64,000 nt of DNA, from positions 200,324,471-200,388,470 of the forward strand of contig NC_072852.1 of assembly GCF_028858705.1 (NCBI RefSeq). The letters run 5' to 3'. Made by a program: the position numbers and the translations under genes. The notes under the pieces are model-generated. The model made no database searches. It was not told where the DNA came from and was given only the letters and a program-made list of their open reading frames with translations. Positions 1 to 61,632 of the stretch are shown here, piece by piece. This DNA is from Grus americana. Lineage: Eukaryota. Positions within the stretch are counted from its first letter, which is position 1, and each line of letters starts with the position of its first letter.

Positions 1-2504
1 GATTCTGTCTGGTGGTACAGGGTTATGCCATTTCAAATGCAGGACTTCAGTTAGCTGCAGTTACTGTTACACCCTTGTAACTCAGGTACAAAATGAGTTA
101 GAAGTCTTTTTTTATTATCAATTGAGAAAGCTGGATAGAATAAAGTCTAATGCAAATGTAAGACTATTTGGCTGTTGAATGGCTGTACATCCAGTACATG
201 CAGACTGATACAAAAATGCAGCTTAAGTGAAGACAGGAAATTGATCATCATACTAAAGATACATACAAAGCCTTACACTCACCTGTCAACATTATTTTAC
301 TCAACAGCGTTATTTCTCTCCTCTGTATCGCTTACAAATAACAGAATACTTCCAAGCATTTTTATACTGCTGTAGCTTCTATGAGAACTAGTGATGGGTT
401 GGAACGAACTCCTATGGAAAGCGGTATCGCCATGTCATTAAAAAGCAGTTAAGGTTACCCATCTCTACTGTGGAACATCACGATTTGCACTGGAGCCTGT
501 TGTTTTAGTATAACTGTAGTGCAGTATGAAAGGCTTTCTAGATACAGATTTTCCAAACTTTTATTGCTTGTTCTCCTAAGTAGGACATGTTAGTATTTCA
601 TTTATCAGCAGGTCTGACTCCTCAGCCCAGTCCTAACACAGGAGTGCCGTCTCTCATGCTACCACTACTATCAGCTCCAGCAACATCAGGACTGTGAATG
701 AAAATAGCTTCTCTGTGCGGTGCTCTCCAGCTCCTCCGCTTCTGCAACTGTGACACAGGAACACACTGACTGGTCTGATGCTGTGCTAGACAGTGGCCGA
801 CTTGGTGTATCTGCTTGGACTTTGTATCAGACTTGGGAATCTGCAACCTGGGAACTACTAGTCTAAAGCAGACTACATAAAATGTGCTCCACTGAATGTA
901 ACACACAGCTTTTCCCAGCCATTTCAGAAGTTAGGGCTGGGTGCGAGTATCTGTCTTGCCCTGTATTTCTGAAGCACAGGAGGATGGCCCCCATTGAAGA
1001 GCCATGGAAAGGTGGCCTGATGCAATTGAAGCCCATGCTACAAAGCTATAACCAACACATGCTGGCTAAGGCACATGCATACAGTACAGCTAACTGCGCT
1101 GACCCAGCCTGGAAACCTCAAGTGCATACAGCTCAGAACCTGCTGCAGAATGGGCTGCTTGGAGGAGGGTGATAGACAGAGAGGGCATAACACACCTTCT
1201 TACCAGCACATGCCAATGACATTTTTAAAAGATAGTACTTGATGTACTCTAGTACTCTTTAGAAGCGTGTGGAATGGTATGACTCCCCTCCAGTATACAG
1301 ATTTTAGATTCCATTGCTGGGGGAGTGGGGGCAGGGGGGGAAGGGAGGGAGAAGAAAAAAAGGTGTCCTCTTGTTTTCAAGCCTAACTTATTATTTTGAC
1401 CAACACTTCATATAGGCAAAATGATAAATACTGTCTTACCTCGAGAGCATAACATTCTTAAGCCATCAAGATATTTCAGCCAAAATACAACTTAATCATG
1501 ATAGCATCACAAATATATAAAAAATTCTTTATCTGAAGGTTCTCCAACCTAAGGGTTTCAAAACCCTGATGTTCTGCACTAAACAGACAGAATTCTATAC
1601 TGTCATGTCCCTGACTGAAGCCTAAAACAAACCCCACAGATTAAACAATTTTTAGACACAATAATAATAAAAAAGCTGTGTTAATTATTTTTTGCATTTG
1701 AAATTTAGGGTATTTTAGAAGAACTTAAACCAGTCTAGACTGCTTTCAAAGATAAGATATGATATTTCAGTCTAAACAAAGCAAAGATCACTACAGCTAG
1801 TTACTTTAATTGGAACAAGCTTCTCAGTTTAAGAGATCTTCAGACATTTTATAAGCCAGTAGACACGGTCTCTCTAAACACACCTTGAAACCACCTCCAA
1901 GTTCTCCATTATATTCGATCCTGCCCATTTATGCACTCAAACACTTTACAACAAAACACTACTGCAGTTCAGCCATAACAGCAAAGAGTAGTCTGACAAT
2001 GCAGACAATAAAAAAAAACTTAATAAAGATACTCCAGATTTAGTCTCTTTAGTCAAAGCTGTAAGATACAAAAAGCTCGCTTGCAAAATTACACACAACG
2101 TATTTTAAATTACGATTATAACGGAACTGTTATTTTCGCGTGGTTCTTGCTCAAGTGTGGAAGAATCGTGCAGGGAAATCTGCCTGAGCAGCAGCCTCTG
2201 CCTCTGCAGCCTTACAGCCTGCGCGGGAAGAGCACGAGACGACCCAGCGCACTCGGGCCCACCCCGCTGCCAGCGCATGGTTAACACCCGCTCCCGACTC
2301 CCAGGCTGCCGTGCACCTCCTCGGGGAGCAGGGGCGAAACCCGACCTCAGGGCAGCCGTCGGCCCCAGTCTGGGGGCGGCCGGGCTGTCAGCCAGCCCGG
2401 CCACCACACGGCGCGGCAGCCTCCCTGAGGGACTCGCAACCACCGCGCCGCCCAGGGGTTCCGCCGCACCCCCAGGAGACCGGCTGGGGGCGCCGGGCTG
2501 ACAG

Positions 2505-2520
2505 GCGGCGGCGGCGGCGC
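2505..2520. repeat. MPHOSPH8: (GGC)5 trinucleotide repeat in MPHOSPH8 intron 1, adjacent to the exon 1 donor. It lies within a GC-rich, triplet-repeat-prone block (2500-2760) that also includes (GCC)n at about 2718-2735.
   Basis: Direct observation. The coding exon 1 (poly-Ala/Glu tracts) is also built from GCC/GAG/GGC-type triplets. Confidence 0.8.
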
Positions 2521-2531
2521 CGTGCACTCAC

Positions 2532-2765
2532 CCCCTCGGTCTTCACGTCGAGGATCTTCTCCACCTCGAAGACGTCCTCCTCCTCCTCGCTCTCACCACC
2601 GCCGCCGCCTGCCGTCGCAGCGCTCGCCGCCTTATCAGCCCCGCCACCGTCTTCCTCCACATCCTCCTCATCCTCCGCCGCAGCCGCCGTCTCCTCCTCT
2701 TCCTCCGCCCCCTCCAGCCTAGCCGCCGCCGCCGCCTCAGCCCCGCTCCCAGCCGCCGCCGCCAT
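2532..2765 (-). CDS. MPHOSPH8: MPHOSPH8 (M-phase phosphoprotein 8) coding exon 1. ATG at 2765. It encodes an Ala/Glu/Gly-rich N-terminus followed by the chromodomain start ...EEDVFEVEKILDVKTEG, then the donor gtgagt.
   Basis: Minus-strand translation MAAAAGSGAE...EEEDVFEVEKILDVKTEG matches the human MPP8 N-terminal chromodomain motif EDVFEVEKILDMKTEGGKVLYKVRWKGY. The exon ends exactly at a GTGAGT donor (intron starts at 2531). An in-frame ATG sits at 2763-2765 inside a CpG island. Confidence 0.8.
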
Positions 2766-3300
2766 TTTGGGCTGAATTTCAAACGACAACGGCGAAAAGC
2801 GGCTGCGACATCCACCGCCGGGCGAGGAGGGAGCGAGGCGGCGGCCGCAGCCAATCGGCGCCCCGCCAACCCATGACGCACAGGGGCGGGGCCCCGAGCC
2901 CGGAGGCCTTCGTGCCCTCAGCGCGGCGGTGAGCGGCAGCCAATGGGTGCGGGCAGCACCGGGAGGCCTCGACAGGGTCCGGAGGGGCTCGGCTTCGTGC
3001 CGGGCCGCGCTGTGAAGGCGGCAGCTCCGCTCGCCCTGGGGCGGGCTGCCCTCCAGCCCTATGCCCGCCACAGAGCCGGCAGCGAGGAGTCCGGTGCCGT
3101 CACGCTCCGGCCGCCCGCCGGTGTTGACCGTCGCGACCCCCGGTCTTGGCGAGGGGCGAGCGCCGGGTGAGCCCCGGAGCTGCCTGTCTGCCCGCTGGCC
3201 CGGGGATCTCTTCCTCGAAATCGAATTTTCCTGGGGAAATGCACCAGAAGGTTGTACCCGGAAACCTCAGGAGACGTCCTGCTGGGGAACAGGGGTTCTC
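2766..3300 (-). promoter_or_regulatory. MPHOSPH8: MPHOSPH8 CpG-island promoter and 5'UTR region. The island spans about 2090-3300. CCAAT boxes lie near 2848-2858 and 2937-2946, and a GC box GGGGCGGGGCC near 2884-2894.
   Basis: Very high GC and CpG density relative to the flanks. The CCAAT (gcagccaatcggcg; cagccaatgggtg) and Sp1-like GC-box motifs lie immediately upstream (minus-strand sense) of the start codon. Confidence 0.6.
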
Positions 3301-4893
3301 ACTAGGAAAAGGAGTCCTTTTACATTTCATAGTGTTTTGCATGCTAAAATAAGTGCCTATAGGCAAGCACAGTTTTTTTTTTTAACGTAACGTGCAGGAG
3401 GAAAAAAGACAATCCTCTAAGAAAAAGCAAATAAACCGCACCCTATTTGCGTACTGAACTGCCTTTGCTAGGGCGTTAATATATTGTATCTCAGAAACAG
3501 TTCCTTAAAGGACACGCATAACTCAAATGAAACTCAGGCTTTAGTGTGAATGTATACTTTTCGTACATACCCAACAGTGAAAACACCAAAGTATTTGAAT
3601 AATTAACTGCAGCGAAGGAAAAAAATATTTTTTTTTTATTCGTATTTTTGCCAGTGCTTACTTTCTAAGGTAACTAGTAATGCAGCAATTGACCATAAAA
3701 AGACTTCAGAGCAGGTTTAGAAGCTAGTTTATAATTGTCTACATTAAAGAGTCTGTGTAGTTCTTAGGAAACCTGTATCCTAGCTCTTCTCAAATAGAAA
3801 GTGTAGTACAAACCTTTCCTTTGTATTATTTACTAAAAAGAGCCAGTATCTTACACACATGAAAACAAGGACTCAGAGCACCTGAGAAACGGAAAGACCT
3901 CAGGCTATCCCTCTTAGAACCTCCTCTACAAGATAACTGTATCTACTCCATCCTTGGCAGATGTTCGCTTAAATTCTCAGGAAAACATCTATGAAAGACA
4001 TTCCACAATTTTCCTTAGTAACCTCTTACACCAGTCCTCTAGTACTGCTAGGGAGCACTCTCCATTTGTTTGGGCAGCGTAACACATTACCTGTGGTGAC
4101 TCTGGAATCTCGTGCTTCCGAGTATTTTCAGTGGTTGGACAAATACGCATAGAGTATGCTCGGTACACACTTCATTCCGCCTTGGTGCAAGCAATAGTAC
4201 TAAGTCTCTAACTACATTTCCTCAGATGACAAAGTACTAAAGTGCGATTCAGTGAAGCTCCTTAATTTAGAGAAGGTAATGCGTTCATTCAAACATCTGT
4301 GAAAAGCCCCTTAAAATAAATAACTTTTAGTCTGATTTTGTTATTAGGCTTCAGTGTTTGGCCCGGTATAAAATAAAACTAATCAGTTAGGGTATTTTGT
4401 CAGAATAAAATCAGAATACAGAGTAACAGTAGTAAAAAAAAAAAAAAAAGAAAAAAGAGAACTCATTGCTCTTAACAAAACTGACCTATTTGTATTGCCA
4501 AATTGACCTATGACAGATAAGAAAAAGCAGTGCAGGAGAAAAATAACTGTTCTGCTGTTCACATTTCAAGACATGCTGTAGGAATTACAACACCAATTGA
4601 AAACACTGATATGAAGATATTTATTAGTTCTTTGTTTATCACATTCTTGTATCTGTCAGAATATCTCATGCCATATTGAACTCAATTACTACAATACGCT
4701 TTCTTTACTGTGCCATTAAAGAAGTACGTAAGATTTTAGGATAAATCAAAACAAAGATATTATAAAAGACCTTTTACAATGTGCAATGAACCAAAGAGGT
4801 TAATGTAAAGAATTGAAATATTAAGGTACAGAGTTACAGGTAAGTAAAATATTACATATATGAAAAATCAAGACTTACTAACTGTAAGACCCT

Positions 4894-27963: not shown

Positions 27964-30425
27964 GATCATAGAATCATAGAATGGTTTGGGTTGGAAGGGA
28001 CCTTAAAGATCATCTAGTTCCAACCCCCCTGCCATGGGCAGGGACAACCTCCACTAGACCACATTGCCCAAAGCCTCATCCAGCCTGGTCTTAAACACTT
28101 CCAGGGATGGGGCCTCCACAACCTCTCTGGGCAACCCGTTCCAGTGCCTCACCACTCTAACAGTCAAGAATTTCTTCCTAATATCTAATCTAAATTGACC
28201 CTCCATCAGCTTAAACCCATTCCCCCTTGTCCTGTCACTACACTCCCTCATAAACAGTCCCTCACCATCTTTCCTGTAGGCCCCTTCAGGTACTGCTAAG
28301 CCGCAATTACATCTCCCCAGAGCCACCTTTTCTCCAGGCTGAACAATCCCAACTCTCTCAGCCTGTCCTCATAGGAGAGGCGCTCCAGCCCTCTGATCAG
28401 CTTCGTGGACCTCCTCTGGACTCTCTCCAACAGCTCCATGTCTCTCCTGTACTGGGGCCCCCAGAGCTGGACGCAGTACTCCAGGTGGGGTCTCACGAGA
28501 GCAGAGTAGAGGGGCAGGATCACCTCCCTCGACCTGCTGGTCACACCTCTTTTGATGCAGCCCAGGACACGGTTGGCTTTCTGGACTGCAAGCGCACACT
28601 GCAGGCTCATGTTGAGCTTCTCGTCCACCAACATCCCCCAAGTCCTTCTCCTCAGGGCTGCTTTCAATCCATTCCTCGCCCAGCCTATAGCTGTGCTTGG
28701 GATTGCGCCAACCCATGTGCAGGACCTTGCACTTGGCCTTGTTGAACTTCATGTGGTTTGCACGGGCCCACCTCTCCAGCCTGTCAAGGTCCCTCTGGGT
28801 GGCATCCCTTCCCTCCAGCATGTCGATCACACGACACAGCTTGGTGTCGTCGGCAAACTTGCTGAGGGTGCACTCGATCCCACTGTCCATGTTGCCAACA
28901 AAGATGTTGAACAGTGCCGGTCCCAGTACTGACCCCTGAGGAACGCCACTCATCACTGTTCTCCACTTGGACATTGAGCTGTTGACCACAACTCTTTGAG
29001 TGCGACCATCCAGCCAATTCCTTATCCACCAAGTGGTCTATCCATCGAATCCATGTCTCTCCAGTTTAGAGACAAGGATGTCGTGCGGGACAGTGTCAAA
29101 TGCCTTGCACAAGTCCAGGTAGATGACGTCAGCTGCCCATCCCTTATCCACCAACGCTGTAACCCCATCATAGAAGGCCACCAAATTTGTCAGGCACGAT
29201 TTGCCCTTAGTGAAGCTGTGTTGGCTGTCACCAATCACCTCCTTATCTTCCATGTGCCTGAGCATAGTCTCCAGGAGGGTCTGCTCCATAATCTTGCCAG
29301 GCATGGAGGTGAGACTGACCGGCCTGTAGTTCCCTGGGTCTTCCTTTTTACCCTTCTTAAAAATGGGGGTTATGTTCCCCCTCTTCCAGTCAGCGGGAAC
29401 TTCACCAGGCTGCCAGGACTTCTCAAATATGATGGAGAGCGGCCTGGCCACTTCATCCGCCAGTTCACTCAAGACCCGCGGATGCAACTCATCAGGTCCC
29501 ATGGACTTGTGCACCTTCAGGTTCCTTAGATATTCTCGAACCTGATCTTTTCCTACAGTGGGCGGTTCTGCATTCTCCCAGTCCCTGCCTTCTGTGACCT
29601 GGGCAGTGTGGCTCAAGCATTTGCCAGTGAAGACTGAGGCAACGAAGTCATTGAGTACCTCAGCCTTCTCCATATCCTGGGTAACCAGGTCACCCATTTT
29701 ATTCCGGAGGGGACCCACATTTTCCCTCATCCTCCTCTTATCACTAACATACCTATAGAAGCTTTTCTTGTTGTCCTTGACATCCCTGGCCAAACTAATT
29801 TCTGTCAGGGCTTTGGCTTTCCTAACCTGCTCCCTGGCTGCTCAGTTTCTCTGTATTCTTCCCAGGCTACCTGCCCTTGCTTCCACCCTCTGTAGGCTTC
29901 CTTTTTGTGTTGGAGTTTGCCCAGGAGCTCCTTGTTCATCCATGGGGGCCTCTTGGTGTTTTTGCTTGACTTCCTCTTTGCTGGGATGCCTTGCTCCTGA
30001 GCTTGGAGGAAGTGATCCTTGAATATTAGCCAGCTGTCTTGGGCTCCTCTTCCTTCTAGGGCTTTGTCCCATGGTATTCTACCAAGCAGATCCCTGAAGA
30101 GGCCAAAGTCTGCTCTCCTGAAGTCCAGGGTAGTGAGCTTGCTGTGCACCCTCCTCGCTGCCCTGAGGATCCTGAATTCCACCATTTCGTGGTCACTGCA
30201 GCCAAGGCTGCCCTTGAGCTTGACGTCCCCTACCAGGCCCTCCTTATTGGTGAGAATAAGGTCCAGCATGGCACCTCTCCTTGTGGGCTCCTCTGTCACT
30301 TGGAGGAGAAAGTTGCCATTGACACATTCCAGGAAATTCCTGGATTGCTTGTGCATGGCTGCGTTGTCCCTCCAGCAGATGTCGGGGTGGTTGAAGTCCC
30401 CCATAAGGACCAGGGCTTGTCATGG
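27964..30425 (-). mobile_element. CR1 (chicken repeat 1) LINE, 5'-truncated (about 2.46 kb) and degraded. It retains the end of the endonuclease domain ([10 protein letters not shown]), the reverse-transcriptase domain split over three frames, and the characteristic 3' tail ...cattctatgattctatgatc. It is sense-oriented relative to PARP4, inside a PARP4 intron.
   Basis: Minus-strand ORFs 29805-30404, 29038-29793 and 28369-28989 translate to CR1 ORF2 ([20 protein letters not shown]; [45 protein letters not shown]). The frameshifts between them indicate decay. The 3' octamer repeats ATTCTRTG are typical of avian CR1. Confidence 0.9.
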
Positions 30426-54081: not shown

Positions 54082-54214
54082 CTTCTGATTAAGCACAAAA
54101 TTAACTACTCCACCGTTTTCTTTTATGGATGCTTTCAATCTACTCTTCTCCTGAATGGGTAAGTATTTTACTTTAATAAAGAACACACAGTTTGCAAAGA
54201 TTGCCATTGCCCTC
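54082..54214 (-). CDS. PARP4: PARP4 first coding exon (probable exon 2). ATG at 54207: MAIFANCVFFIKVKYLPIQEKSRLKASIKENGGVVNFVLNQK. The 7 nt of 5'UTR upstream of the ATG follow an acceptor.
   Basis: Matches the human PARP4 N-terminus MVMGIFANCIFCLKVKYLPQQQKKKLQTDIKENGGKFSFSLNPQ. The acceptor ttttctcttttaacag precedes GAGGGCAATGG and the donor is gtaagt. An upstream acceptor implies a non-coding exon 1 further 5' (the CpG island at 59 kb). Confidence 0.85.
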
Positions 54215-54740
54215 CTGTTAAAAGAGAAAAGTTTTTTGTTTTTTTTTTGGCTGAGAAAACTTTCATTCCCACTATCCACTTAAGTAGTCTCTCACCAAAT
54301 ATATTCTTTGCAACTCTAGGAAGTTCTAAAGCAAATCCCATTTTATTAGCATGGTAATCAAATCCACCCGGAACATCTCTTAATCAGTGTTGTTTTTTTT
54401 TTTTAAATTCTGTGGAAAATTTAGCATGACCTATGTTTTCAGTAAAGTCATGGCTTGAACTAAGAGCCAAACTCTTGTCTTGTTCTCTTGCTGCTAATAC
54501 CCACTTTTAGTAATGTGGAATTATCTTAATTTAGACTGGAACAAGCTCTTTCAGCTCCCCTTTCACATTGTACCATTACAAAATAACTCTTTTTCAAGAA
54601 TGTAAACTGCTTTTCATGTTTTCACTTACTGATTTATAATCTGTAAAAATATATATATGTATAAAAATATCCCACAGCATTTAAAAAGAACTTCGGAAAA
54701 CTGATCCAGATTAAACCCAACACAGCAACCTCTCTGCCTG

Positions 54741-57700: not shown

Positions 57701-59447
57701 TGAGGTACAACTGGAGAGCCTGGGCGTTGTGAGCAGGAAGGGCTACAACACACTCATACCTCTCTGTAAAATACCCAAAGGGACAGCAACCCAGTCAAAT
57801 AAATGAACCAAGCAAAGTGCAGTCTACTGCCCAATAAGGAGCAGTAACCCTTGCTGCACTTGGAAGGAGGAGGAAATTGTCACTGTTAAAGCACAAGTGA
57901 ACTTTGGAATACCTGACAGAGAGCAGGAAATTGAGTTAAAACCTGTTCAAAGTCCGTCCCCAGCAATTCTTCTCTCCCTTGAGTGAAGAAGATTCTATTC
58001 TCTTTCATTGTTGAGGAATGCTACCACTGAATAGTAGCCTCTCCTCCCCTATTTTCCTAGAGAACCAAGGAATTTTAGCAGTGTTTGGCTTTACTCTTTT
58101 TGAATGGCAGAATTTCCAAAATTCAAAATCAGAATAGAAAACTATTGTATTTAGTCTGTGTATTGAGAATTAATTAGCTGCTGATAAATACTTTTATAAC
58201 TGGAATACTTTGTTGTTGCAGCACCAGACATGGAAGTTATGCAAAGCGGAACTGCTGACAACTATCACTGGTTTAATTCTTACAATTTTAATTTATGTTG
58301 GTGAAGATCCATAAGGCCCCAGTAGCCTCAAAGGATTTCACACAAGCTTGTGTTCATGATCAAACCACAAATTCAACACCATTGTTAGCAATGACATATT
58401 TTTAGTGAAGAGAGGGAGCCAAAAATATTTTTTTATTGTTCAACAATAGACCACAAATAATCTGTAGCCCTGTAAGGCCTTCAGTGTGCAGGTAAACTGA
58501 AAACAAACCTCTACAGTATGTTCCTACTAAAAACGTCAAAAAGACAGAATGTGATGCTGTGCTTTAAAAAAAGCACAAGTACAAATCCTTTTATTTTCTA
58601 GCACAGTAGCTTATCAGCGTTAATACAGAATCCAGTCTGAGGACAATTATGTAGCCAACATATACGTAGACAATGTATTCATAACTGGCAAAACCAAAGC
58701 GCGGGCAAGATGATGGAAAGTTTAGCAGAAAGAGCCCTGTGAACTACAGATAACAGCAGAAATTAAAACTGGTAGTAGGCAACTGAAAGGGATGCCCTGG
58801 GTTTATACAGCCTAAAGCTCCGTTCTGTACCTGCCCACGCAGCCTGCGACGTACCACAAGTTTTTGGAGTGGGGTGCTCTGCCACTTACTGGAGTTTAGA
58901 GGAAAACACTAATTTCGCTCAGTAAGACAGAGCATGCCTAATGCACAAAACGTCAGAAAGCCAGGGGATGCTTTCTGCCCATGTATCTTCCTGTTCCTCC
59001 CTTACTGCAGCTACTTAGAAATTAAAAGGGTATAAGCAGCCGCAATACCAGCGCACTAGAAGTCCAAAGCCTCACCCCCGCAGACAACGCCACACCGCGA
59101 AAGGCTTGCGGACAGCTCGCTAGACAAGGATCTTCCCACACACCATGCCGGGACAGCCGCTGAAGAGCGCTGCGCGGGTACGGCCTTCCGCCTCTTGAGG
59201 AGAGGCGCTGCCCGAAGAGAAACTCCGTCTCCCAAAAGGGCCACCAGCGGCAACGCGGAGAGGACCCGGGAGCCGCCTCCACCTGCGGGGCGTCCTCAAG
59301 AGCGAGGGGCAGGCCCGGGTACCTGAAAGGATCCCCACCGCCTCTTCCCGCCCCGACAGCCCCGAGCAGGAACCGCGGAAGCAGCGGCTGCGGGCGCACT
59401 ACTTCACTGTTGATGCCCGTCAACGGCCTTTTCGCCACCGAGGCTCT

Positions 59448-59467
59448 TGGGAGCTGTAGTTCGAGCG
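59448..59467 (-). promoter_or_regulatory. ZNF143/Staf-binding-site-like motif (ACTACAGCTCCCAAGAGCC on the minus strand).
   Basis: It matches the extended SBS consensus ACTACAAxTCCCAGxAxxGC (ACTACA followed by TCCCA). It is in inverted orientation relative to the second site 60 bp away. Confidence 0.45.
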
Positions 59468-59510
59468 CCGAAACAACGCCTCCCAGCTGGGCGGGGAAGG
59501 CGGTGGGTTA

Positions 59511-59535
59511 GAACTACAGCTCCCAGCATGCTCGG
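59511..59535 (+). promoter_or_regulatory. ZNF143/Staf-binding-site-like motif (gAACTACAGCTCCCAGCATGCtcgg) on the plus strand.
   Basis: Near-perfect match to the extended SBS motif ACTACAxxTCCCAGCAxTGC that is common in bidirectional CpG promoters. Confidence 0.5.
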
Positions 59536-61257
59536 CGCCGGGGCGGTGCCCAGCCTGTGGCGCCGGGAGGCTGTGCGATGGCGGCAGGTTTGTAATAGAA
59601 GGCGAGGGGTGGTGGGCAGAGTGGAGTGTTGCTGCGGAAGCGGTCTGAGGAGCGGTGTAGGTGCTGCTTTCTCGGTATCTGTGAGGGCCCGTGGGTCGGA
59701 GCTGTTGCGGTGCGGGTGCCTTGGGGCCGGGGGAGCGGCGGGACGCTTCACTCCTCTGTGAGGGCGTCGTGGTGCCGCTGTCTGGGGCGATGTCCGTGTT
59801 CACGGGGGAAGGGAGGCGCCGAGCCTGGCCCCTCGGCTCGGCAGAGGAGCGTAGCTGTGCTCGTTTCCTTACCGGCGACCTTCGGGGGATCCCTTCGTCC
59901 CTCCTCGCCTTCGCGGGGCGGGTCAGCTTCAGCCCTGCAGGCTCTTTCGGTTGGCACGAAGGCGCTGCTGCCCTTAGACTCTAGGGGAAGCTTTAAACTG
60001 GCAGGCTGCCACGAAAGGGTTTCCAAAAGGTGACAATAGAAGTAGCGTCTGAACCCTGTGGGCTTGAATTTGCCTATACCTGTACCTCGCCGGGAGACTT
60101 CCAGTGGCGCCTCAAAATTGCAGGCAGTTGAAAAACATTTTTCTAGGTGAATTTCACTATTTCTCCTAGTCAAAGTTTCAAACTCCGGTTGAAAGCATAA
60201 GCCCTTTTACCGCAGGGAAAATGAAGCGAGAGCTGGCATGAACCGATGATCTCTTGGGAACAAGGAAGCCCTAAGCAGTTATTTCCTGATCAGCAGGCCT
60301 GTGGAGCCTGGGCTGCTGTGCTTGTCTGTCCTGTGTCCCCTGGCCCCTTCTTTCCTCTCTGTTCCCTGTGACACGCCACGTGCACAGGCAGGGAGTGAAC
60401 TGCCCTGGGACTAGTGTGAGGCAGCAGGGCTGAGTGGTCAGGGTCTGGCTTGCCACATCAGCAGCAGTTCTTTTTTTCCTCCTAAGTGAGGAAGTCACTT
60501 TGGGTCTCCTACCTACCTGAATTCATTCATGTTTTATGACACTTGCAAGAATTTAGTTATCGCTGAAAGTTTTGCAGTCTTCAAACTTTCTTTTTTTTGG
60601 ATGGATTAAAAAAAAAGAAGCTGGTTGGGAGGAAGAACTAACAGGCGGCATGGTTGTAGAGTTTCCATGAGAAACTAAGGAAGACATGACAATAATAAGT
60701 GCTGCACTGAAACGTGCAGTAAAATGTTTGTATTTAGATGCACATATTTGAAACTTTCTGTTAATACGAAGGTCCTATGAGGGAAGTTTGTCTTTCAATT
60801 CCTCAAATCACCTCTCTTCTTTTGTTGCAGGCACTTTAAAAAAATTCCGAATCCCTCTCTGTACTCTTGAAGAGAATATTATACACAGCTTTATAATATT
60901 TGAGATAATACTAGCTGCGTTCAAATAAATAATAAGATTAAAAGTTGGATTATGTTGACTTCCTGTACAGAAAGTGTTTGTTACTAGTTGTCCAAATTGT
61001 TTCTATTGCCTAGGGAAAAGTAGATTGTGACTGATTTTTATAAATACACTAAGTTGGTTACAAGAGAGTAACTTTCTTTTACTGGGAGTCCGTTACTGTA
61101 GATTTCTTATTTTGTTTATCTGCTTAATTTCTAGGTGCTGAAAGTAGGTAACCATCCACACCAAATACCTGGAACTTTGAAAGTGTCCTAACGCTACATA
61201 ACGTAATATTGTTATGTTAATGCTACATCAGCAAATAAATTGGATACAATACACAAG

Positions 61258-61632
61258 ATGCCAACTGTTGAAGATCCGAGTAGTGAACAAAACTTCATCA
61301 TGCATTGGATGTCAGACAGTTCCCGTGCTGGAGTCTTATTAGATCCTAGTTTTACCAGTTTGAAAATCAACAAAGAAAACTTGTTATCTGGACCTGAAAA
61401 CATTACAGCTTTCCCTGCTGAAGTGTGTCTTTCAGACAGCTGTTCTGTAAGTGATGACTCCTTGTGTGAAGAGTCGGGCAGCTCTTGTACACTTCAGCAA
61501 TATACCACTGAAACATCTTTTCCAGCAGCAGCATATAACGTAGAAGCCTCTAAAACAGACTTTGTCTGTGGTGAAGTGGATGGCCAGAATAAATCCGATC
61601 ACAGTGACCCACTCTTACAAAAGCTTGAACAG
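61258..61632 (+). CDS. CENPJ: CENPJ (CPAP) first coding exon: MPTVEDPSSEQNFIMHWMSDSSRAGVLLDPSFTSLKINKEN...DHSDPLLQKLEQ. 125 codons, donor gtaaaag.
   Basis: Matches the human CENPJ N-terminus [44 protein letters not shown]...DPLFKKLEQ. An in-frame stop lies 54 nt upstream of the ATG, and an acceptor-like site (tgctacatcag) lies at 61230. Confidence 0.85.

Follow-up and report, generated by a model that had tools for sequence, protein, structure and literature searches.

A probable bidirectional CpG-island promoter with paired SBS2 motifs between PARP4 and CENPJ in a bird genome

Where two neighbouring genes that point away from each other begin to be transcribed, and whether from one and the same place, is the question raised by the interval between PARP4 and CENPJ. 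In the window, that is the whole 64-kb stretch of bird DNA analysed here, the two lie head to head, PARP4 on the minus and CENPJ on the plus strand, and the first coding exons assigned to them in a sequence-only reading are borne out by Pfam domains, by PDB chains and by collinear orthologous contigs. PARP4 is identified on the minus strand by the Pfam domains BRCT, PARP_reg, PARP, VIT and VWA, and solved PARP4 chains in the PDB match from residue 3 (E=3e-26). Its first coding exon (54214 to 54082, minus strand, ATG at 54207; 54082..54216 with the acceptor) is preceded by ttttaacAG, the AG occupying 54216-54215. L135, L138 and L141 share this acceptor, TTTTCTNTTTTAACAG|GAG, with the window, four species in all, and therefore an upstream exon is required, as had been proposed. 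On the other side the first coding exon segment of CENPJ spans 61258..61632 on the plus strand, with the ATG at 61258 and a donor at 61632|61633, and its 125-aa ORF has 22 orthologous ORFs at 68-100% identity; the identity is confirmed by collinear orthologous contigs carrying PF25779 Tubulin-bind_CPAP. Nothing else was detected between the genes, Rfam at gathering thresholds giving no family in the whole window and Rfam at E<=1 giving, within the island described next, only a resemblance to mir-1805.

Sliding 500-bp windows with GC>=0.55 and CpG o/e>=0.65, read together with the GC profile, define one CpG island at 58801..60200, and no second 500-bp window passes these thresholds between 54.2 and 61.3 kb, so that the claim of a single island between the two coding exons is upheld; elsewhere in the 64-kb window the sole other island is at 2.0-3.5 kb. 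Positions 58990-60000 have a GC content of 0.654, a CpG o/e of 0.84 and 90 CpG, whereas the whole window has a GC content of 0.383 and a CpG o/e of 0.28. At 59485, the minimum of cumulative (G+T)-(C+A), strand composition changes from C+A-rich on the left (G+T fraction 0.43) to G+T-rich on the right (0.62), and the C+A-rich stretch left of the switch, of about 470 bp, mirrors the CENPJ side. TATA, CCAAT and NRF1 sites are absent from the island. It holds an Sp1-type GC box, GGGGCGG (59540..59546, plus), and on the PARP4 side TTCCCGC (59345..59351, plus), for which an E2F-like type is a guess from the consensus alone; both are conserved in 3/3 other species. The sample for conservation in the island is small, comprising the window and the orthologous contigs of three other bird species (L007, L005/L006 and L011). 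Across it, no non-coding block is more conserved than 59511-59605, which matches the coding exon in this respect, reaches 100% identity in 25-nt windows and spans the right-hand of the two motifs at the island centre, the GC box, a YY1/TISU-like ATGGCGGC and an invariant donor CAG|GTTTGT. High conservation is also seen in a separate block at 58883-58941, kept as an unexplained element.

The M4 motif ACTAYRNNNCCCR has exactly two matches in 64 kb, at 59448-59460 (minus) and 59513-59525 (plus), where shuffles lead one to expect 0.41 per 64-kb window. Both copies share an identical 15-mer, GAACTACAGCTCCCA, at 59448-59462 and 59511-59525, and so form a perfect, outward-facing inverted repeat whose arms are identical even at degenerate motif positions. 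With up to 2 mismatches allowed, 0.07 copies of the 15-mer are expected and two copies were seen in 0/100 shuffles, and two motif matches were seen in 0/20,000 simulations with the dinucleotide composition of the island. The presence of two Staf/ZNF143-like motifs in the island is thus upheld by motif scan, chance tests and conservation in four bird species, and so is their outward-facing arrangement, but not the spacing of 60 bp, since the gap between the 15-mers is 48 bp and the 5' ends of ACTACA are 53 bp apart. The left site, GA-ACTACAG-CTCCCAAGAGCCTCGGTG (59436..59462, minus), looks toward PARP4, and its core is invariant in the four-species alignment, with ACTACA, CCCR at SBS positions 3-6 and C at position 12 in 4/4 species. 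The right site, GA-ACTACAG-CTCCCAGCATGCTCGGCG (59511..59537, plus), looks toward CENPJ and agrees with a published SBS2 probe at 19/25 positions; ACTACA is intact in 3/4 species, L007 having ACTACC. The description of both sites as near-consensus suits the right one, a strong full SBS, but not entirely the left one, in which the defining positions are kept and the 3' half is weaker. Those positions, CCCR at 3-6 and C at 12 (PMC3082894), are present in 8/8 cases (2 sites x 4 species), and ACTACA in 7/8. In each site ACTACAN stands directly 5' of the SBS, which is the arrangement of SBS2, of the TBS (ACTACANNTCCCA) and of M4. The 48-bp spacer (59463..59510) holds the composition switch and has diverged in L005 and L011, giving a footprint-like pattern of motifs conserved across four bird species around a diverged interval.

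In mammals SBS2 is a target of the activator ZNF143, which stimulates initiation, and of THAP11 with HCFC1, which competes for it. THAP11 binds SBS2 only, and two Pol II peaks flank SBS2 loci (PMC3627581). By extrapolation from mammals ZNF143, THAP11 and YY1 may bind the bird sites. Likeness to SBS2/THAP11-HCFC1/M4 promoters extends over ACTACAN directly 5' of the 18-bp SBS, CCCR at 3-6 and C at 12, and the RRACTACAN form (GAACTACAG); a TATA-less CpG island adjoining Sp1-type and YY1-type elements is likewise found among HCFC1-bound human promoters (PMC3668359, PMC3627581, PMC5006282). The present locus differs in belonging to a bird and in having predicted sites, and its two sites repeat each other exactly over 15 bp in inverted orientation, degenerate positions included. 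Their location, at the island centre and conserved in four species, is that expected of SBS2 if the island is a promoter. The closest comparison in arrangement is with the ZNF143-dependent bidirectional promoters of Anno et al. 2011 (PMC3082894), which share head-to-head genes, a CpG island, mirror composition and a central SBS with ACTACA, and include TMEM186-PMM2 and a fragment of BUB1B in which two SBS accompany two RRACTACAN motifs; like the mitotic gene BUB1B, CENPJ serves cell division. Bidirectional promoters have been described as having a 'mirror' composition (PMC3082894), and the switch at 59485 agrees with it. For the published pairs the annotated start sites had to lie within 1 kb of each other, whereas PARP4 and CENPJ are compared here by first coding exons 7 kb apart; from the single island, the conserved PARP4 acceptor and the conserved CENPJ donor, their start sites too would be less than 1 kb apart. 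An outward-facing pair had been called a hallmark of bidirectional promoters, which goes beyond what is published, namely that ACTACANNTCCC is enriched in them and that a single SBS suffices for two-way activity (PMC3082894).

With its CpG richness, want of TATA and mirror composition, the island is probably a two-way promoter for PARP4 (minus) and CENPJ (plus), with the two outward-facing SBS2 at its centre. In this model each 25-bp SBS2, a Staf-binding site extended by ACTACA as in M4, would direct initiation a few tens of bases outside itself. The CENPJ transcript would run past the GC box and ATGGCGGC and be spliced at CAG|GTTTGT (59587|59588), most likely to 61135 and alternatively to 61232, while the PARP4 transcript would begin with a 5' non-coding exon starting left of 59436 and spliced about 5 kb downstream to 54214.

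That CENPJ starts, and has its exon 1, in the island is well supported. The putative exon 1 (59540..59587, plus, limits estimated from the conserved block 59511-59605) has its 3' end at the candidate 5' splice site (59585..59593, plus), the nearest donor-like site on the downstream side of the right motif. It is of moderate score (5.9 bits on a simple consensus matrix), and the proposal of this donor holds well, the site being identical in every species covering it (the window, L007, L005/L006, L011 and also L004). The exon was previously taken as non-coding, which needs correction, as it ends in conserved ATGGCGGCAG with an ATG at 59578. That ATG (59578-59580, within the core at 59578..59585, plus, conserved in 3/3 other species) is 41 nt beyond the end of the right SBS2 and, with the 61135 acceptor, would open an 8-codon upstream ORF (MAAGxxxR-stop). 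The TISU consensus SAASATGGCGGC is linked to YY1 (PMC5577775) and takes in a start codon near the transcription start, the ATG standing within about 30 nt of it; TGCGATGGCGGC agrees with it at 9/12 positions, the core and -1 matching and -4 to -2 differing, with GC here in place of AA at -3/-2. In TISU elements and the JPX first-exon upstream ORF (PMC5577775) there is similarly a ATGGCGGC core with its ATG in a short first exon, conserved at the DNA level and opening only a short ORF.

For the start of CENPJ exon 2, acceptor A (TGTTTATCTGCTTAATTTCTAG|G, 61113..61135, plus, junction 61134|61135) is better supported than acceptor B (61210..61232, plus, junction 61231|61232), the choice of the sequence-only reading, and is most likely the one used. 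Its AG is present in 8/8 species and its pyrimidine fraction is 0.75 in seven of them (0.60 in L004), within a highly conserved surrounding at 61022-61153; acceptor B has a pyrimidine fraction of 0.60 and an AG in 7/8 species, lost in L008 (CAA). In the window, ATG 59578 spliced to 61232 would be in frame with the CENPJ ATG via a 26-nt leader, a length confirmed in the independent contig L012. An N-terminal extension of CENPJ is nevertheless rejected as a general reading, because six other species (L001, L004, L005, L007, L009/L011 and L013) have a 27-nt leader that breaks the frame and because 61135 is the better acceptor. Metagenome scans with the exon-1 string gave no match to a 21-mer and, for a 16-mer, 120 chance microbial matches with 0 orthologous. 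Protein database searches returned genomic ORF fragments only, with no transcript-derived or annotated bird proteins and hence no splice evidence.

A PARP4 start inside the island is plausible. On the minus strand between 58.45 and 59.45 kb no exon-1 donor is conserved in all four species; CAG|GTGGAG at 59282 and GGG|GTGAGG at 59075 are common to the two closest species. A donor CAG|GTACCC (59323|59322), of which L007 has a weak form and L005 and L011 none, was set aside. A small internal 5' UTR exon at 58938-58890 was rejected; in the window it has an acceptor ttttgtgcattag| and a donor |gtaagt, but L007, L005 and L011 lack the donor.

The want of a fully conserved PARP4 donor, the 5 kb separating the island from the PARP4 coding exon and the conserved block at 58883-58941 all lend something to a different account, in which the island serves CENPJ alone and PARP4 is transcribed from a separate CpG-poor promoter or an unrecognised exon in 54.3-58.9 kb. 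The leftward site would then also serve CENPJ, SBS activity being orientation-independent and a single SBS active in either orientation (PMC3082894), or would drive only unstable upstream antisense RNA. Against this, the conserved PARP4 acceptor calls for an upstream exon and the interval offers no second CpG island. The composition left of the switch, C+A-rich, is the mirror image of that on the CENPJ side, conservation extends to the left site and to several blocks on the PARP4 flank, and donors common to the two closest species do exist; an island devoted to CENPJ is rather unlikely. It is hard to see the motif pair as a chance or inert GC-rich feature or as a repeat-element relic. Mammalian SBS2 sites can stem from retroelements such as MLT1J (PMC3627581), yet no further copies occur in the 64 kb, and conservation of both sites beside a diverged spacer, together with the simulation statistics, rules such an origin out for practical purposes. 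Scarcely more credible is a hidden small non-coding RNA gene of the snRNA, tRNA-Sec, Y RNA, 7SK or vault RNA type driven by the Staf/ZNF143 sites. Staf was first characterised through its activation of snRNA and tRNA-Sec genes and PARP4 is a vault component, so that a vault-RNA gene nearby is attractive. The Rfam results given above and the lack of a TATA box speak against it, as does the occurrence in such human genes of SBS1 only, never SBS2 (PMC3627581), the sites here being SBS2; a Staf-dependent gene of the SBS1 plus PSE/TATA kind is rejected on these grounds.

The arms of the inverted repeat might instead work as a hairpin, in RNA or single-stranded DNA, which would make the element a microRNA-like precursor at a promoter, akin to avian mir-1805, and not just a pair of protein-binding sites. 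The full-length mir-1805 model (RF03779) matches 59439-59534 on the minus strand end to end (25.9 bits, E=0.002-0.008), the consensus stem likewise consisting of an inverted ACTACA..CTCC pair with ACTACAGCTCC-type arms; shuffled sequences fold far less well than this one (z=-4.8 as DNA, -4.6 and -5.0 as RNA), and the arms agree even where the motif is degenerate. Yet 25.9 bits is far under the mir-1805 gathering threshold of 64, and mature gga-miR-1805, tgtattggaacactacagctcc (PMC9876980), has no match in the window even when 3 mismatches are allowed, on which two grounds membership of the family is rejected. The weak match is explained by the shared inverted motif. The loop differs from that of mir-1805 in sequence and length (50 nt vs 39 in the model) and is unconserved. 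Among the four sequences available the stem is intact in 3/4 species, and none of the arm substitutions in L007 and L011 is compensated, with two mid-stem mismatches in L007, where z falls to -1.5 and -2.2. Further, if start sites lie outside the SBS2 sites, both arms would be in neither mRNA. A functional hairpin is thus improbable. Hardly less doubtful is the broader idea that exact inverted SBS2/M4 pairs at bird promoters are a recurrent source of hairpin small RNAs, mir-1805 being one case and 59439-59534 a second; were it true, base pairing would be a second reason, beside protein binding, for the arms to stay identical.

Overall the bidirectional-promoter reading makes the PARP4-CENPJ island a further example of a well-known promoter type, real and conserved and not surprising. 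A literature search returned no paper linking CENPJ with ZNF143 and none describing a PARP4-CENPJ promoter. The pairing of the two genes had been thought notable in itself, but about 10% of human genes have a head-to-head neighbour (PMC3082894), which makes a functionally unrelated pair unremarkable, and a shared promoter carries no implication of a functional vault-centriole link.

CENPJ/CPAP is a dosage-sensitive centriole-length factor, and what is gained is a concrete model of its promoter in birds, with two SBS2 sites, a GC box and a YY1/TISU-like ATG, whose predicted upstream ORF could damp CENPJ translation. Likely exon boundaries are corrected for annotation, and the promoter type to which the island probably belongs covers about a tenth of vertebrate genes.

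The gene on the minus strand is PARP4, because its ORF pieces carry, in this order, BRCT, PARP_reg, PARP catalytic, VIT and VWA domains and because coding exons 1 and 2 give a match to solved PARP4 chains that begins at residue 3 (E=3e-26). For the plus-strand exon, which runs from an ATG at 61258 to a donor at 61632/GT, protein database matches comprised only unnamed genomic ORF fragments, through which orthologous contigs were retrieved; there are 22 orthologous ORFs, and the downstream ORFs of the contigs carrying them contain the Tubulin-bind_CPAP domain (PF25779). By this orthology the plus-strand gene is CENPJ/CPAP and the exon its first coding exon. The acceptor proposed ahead of each first coding exon is seen at both, and that of PARP4, TTTTCTNTTTTAACAG/GAG, is kept in three further species, and so an upstream exon is needed for PARP4. 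Long ORF pieces within a PARP4 intron (about 28000-30400, minus strand) presumably belong to a CR1-type LINE reverse transcriptase, which they resemble by eye. A separate CpG island at 2000-3500, just past the PARP4 3' end, covers a minus-strand first exon ending ...EDVFEVEKILDVKTEG (ORF 2388-3071, minus). Against solved structures this exon gives a weak match (E=0.004) to the beginning of the chromodomain of M-phase phosphoprotein 8 (MPHOSPH8), and the island is probably the MPHOSPH8 promoter.

Between the PARP4 and CENPJ coding exons, 500-bp windows passing the usual criteria delimit an island at 58801-60200 and the scan found no second one there; the sole other island of the window is that at 2.0-3.5 kb. 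From 58990 to 60000 the GC content is 0.654, with 90 CpGs and a CpG observed/expected ratio of 0.84, as against 0.383 and 0.28 for the whole 64 kb. A motif scan of the island found no TATA, CCAAT, NRF1 or CHR elements. The running total of (G+T)-(C+A) is lowest at 59485, a point lying between the motif sites, with a C+A-rich flank to the left and a G+T-rich flank to the right, the same mirror strand composition as described for bidirectional promoters (PMC3082894).

The Staf/ZNF143 binding site (SBS) spans 18 bp, of which positions 3-6 read CCCR and position 12 is C; it is extended by RRACTACAN in around one fifth of cases and can, as a single copy, suffice for transcription in two directions, and ACTACANNTCCC is among five motifs enriched in bidirectional promoters (PMC3082894). 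The form with ACTACAN, SBS2, is the only one bound by THAP11, in competition with ZNF143, and its loci are flanked by two Pol II peaks; for snRNA-type genes, SBS1 is the only form in use (PMC3627581). The two motif positions of the sequence-only reading were borne out, in that the window holds exactly two matches to the promoter motif M4 (ACTAYRNNNCCCR), at 59448-59460 (minus) and 59513-59525 (plus), where 0.41 matches are expected. Both copies lengthen to one identical 15-mer, GAACTACAGCTCCCA, inverted and facing outward across a 48-bp spacer. Among 20,000 simulated islands of the same dinucleotide composition 119 held one match and none held two, and the pair is not due to chance.

Contigs spanning the island come from three other species: L007 at about 86% identity to the window, L005/L006 and L011 at about 73-75%; a further contig, L004, starts at the exon-1 donor. 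Across the two sites in four species, CCCR and the C at position 12 are kept in 8/8 and ACTACA in 7/8, and in L005 and L011 both motif cores are preserved around a spacer that cannot be aligned, the pattern of a classic footprint. A sliding-window profile places the top conserved non-coding block at 59511-59605, reaching 100% over 25 nt, on a par with the coding exon. The GC box (59540-59546), ATGGCGGC (59578-59585) and TTCCCGC (59345-59351) are each kept in all four species. Constraint is much weaker at the PARP4 side of the island than at the CENPJ side. About 120 bp on the PARP4 side (59084-59205) are present in the window and L007 and missing from L005 and L011. At the island edge there, a block of about 60 bp (58883-58941; minus-strand reading ...CTTACTGAGCGAAATTAGTGTTTTCCTCTAAACTCCAG) reaches as much as 97% conservation across four species and can be made out in part in a fifth (L135:252-300); in the window it has the look of a small exon whose donor is GTAAGT, and that donor is missing from the other species.

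Could the inverted pair instead be a small-RNA gene hidden in the island, or be kept as a structural hairpin? Nothing in Rfam matches at gathering thresholds. At a permissive threshold the two-arm hairpin (59439-59534, minus) does match the avian microRNA family mir-1805 (RF03779) end to end, but with 25.9 bits where the threshold is 64, and the mature miR-1805 sequence (PMC9876980) is missing; the match arises because the consensus stem of the family likewise consists of an inverted ACTACA..CTCC pair, with two ACTACAGCTCC-type arms that share the island's motif. This raises the question whether mir-1805 may itself derive from, or sit at, an inverted M4/SBS2 promoter pair. As to a hairpin, in three species the arms fold much better than shuffled sequences do, but their substitutions are all uncompensated and the stem is broken in L007; the arms would be conserved as motifs and not as a helix.

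Overall the island is most probably a typical two-way CpG-island promoter of the TATA-less kind, whose divergent SBS2/M4 pair is conserved. Its use as the CENPJ promoter is strongly supported and as the PARP4 promoter likely. A literature search found no description of a PARP4-CENPJ promoter, although a duck study names the two genes jointly as one association signal (PMC6676418); the kind of promoter is well known and this instance is new. On the PARP4 side several minus-strand donors are common to the window and L007, the species closest to it (59282 and 59075 for example), but none within 58.45-59.45 kb is kept throughout the four species, and so the first PARP4 exon is not definable.

On the CENPJ side the first donor-like site past the right motif is CAG/GTTTGT at 59587/59588, the donor already proposed, and it is identical in all species covering it. 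The acceptor proposed with it, 61231/61232, fares less well: its pyrimidine tract is modest (0.60) and its AG is missing from L008, whereas at 61134/61135, inside a strongly conserved stretch, TTAATTTCTAG/G has its AG in 8/8 species and a pyrimidine fraction of 0.75 in 7/8. L008 has CAA where others have CAG (L008:770-780, orthologous to 61229-61232), possibly a sequencing error in that contig, and this is the single observation most directly against 61231 as a universal CENPJ exon-2 acceptor. The putative exon 1 ends in ATGGCGGCAG, and so an ATG at 59578 lies within it; ATGGCGGC forms the core of the YY1-linked element TISU (SAASATGGCGGC), which doubles as a start codon near the start site (PMC5577775), and the site matches that consensus at 9/12 positions. 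Exon 1 sequence comes from the window, L005/L006, L007 and L011, the same 10-nt exon end being assumed for the remaining species. Predicted splicing to 61135 gives an 8-codon ORF (MAAGxxxR-stop) with the same stop codon in 8/8 species. Predicted splicing to 61232 gives an ORF that runs across the CENPJ ATG in a different frame in 6/7 other species, the remaining one being L008 without the acceptor AG, and in frame only in the window's species. There the CENPJ leader (61232-61257) has a 1-nt deletion, being 26 nt as against 27 in seven other species, and a second, independent contig (L012) agrees that it is real. Use of the acceptor at 61232 would thereby put the ATG of exon 1 in frame with CENPJ, and the protein would gain MAAANKLDTIHK, in this lineage only.
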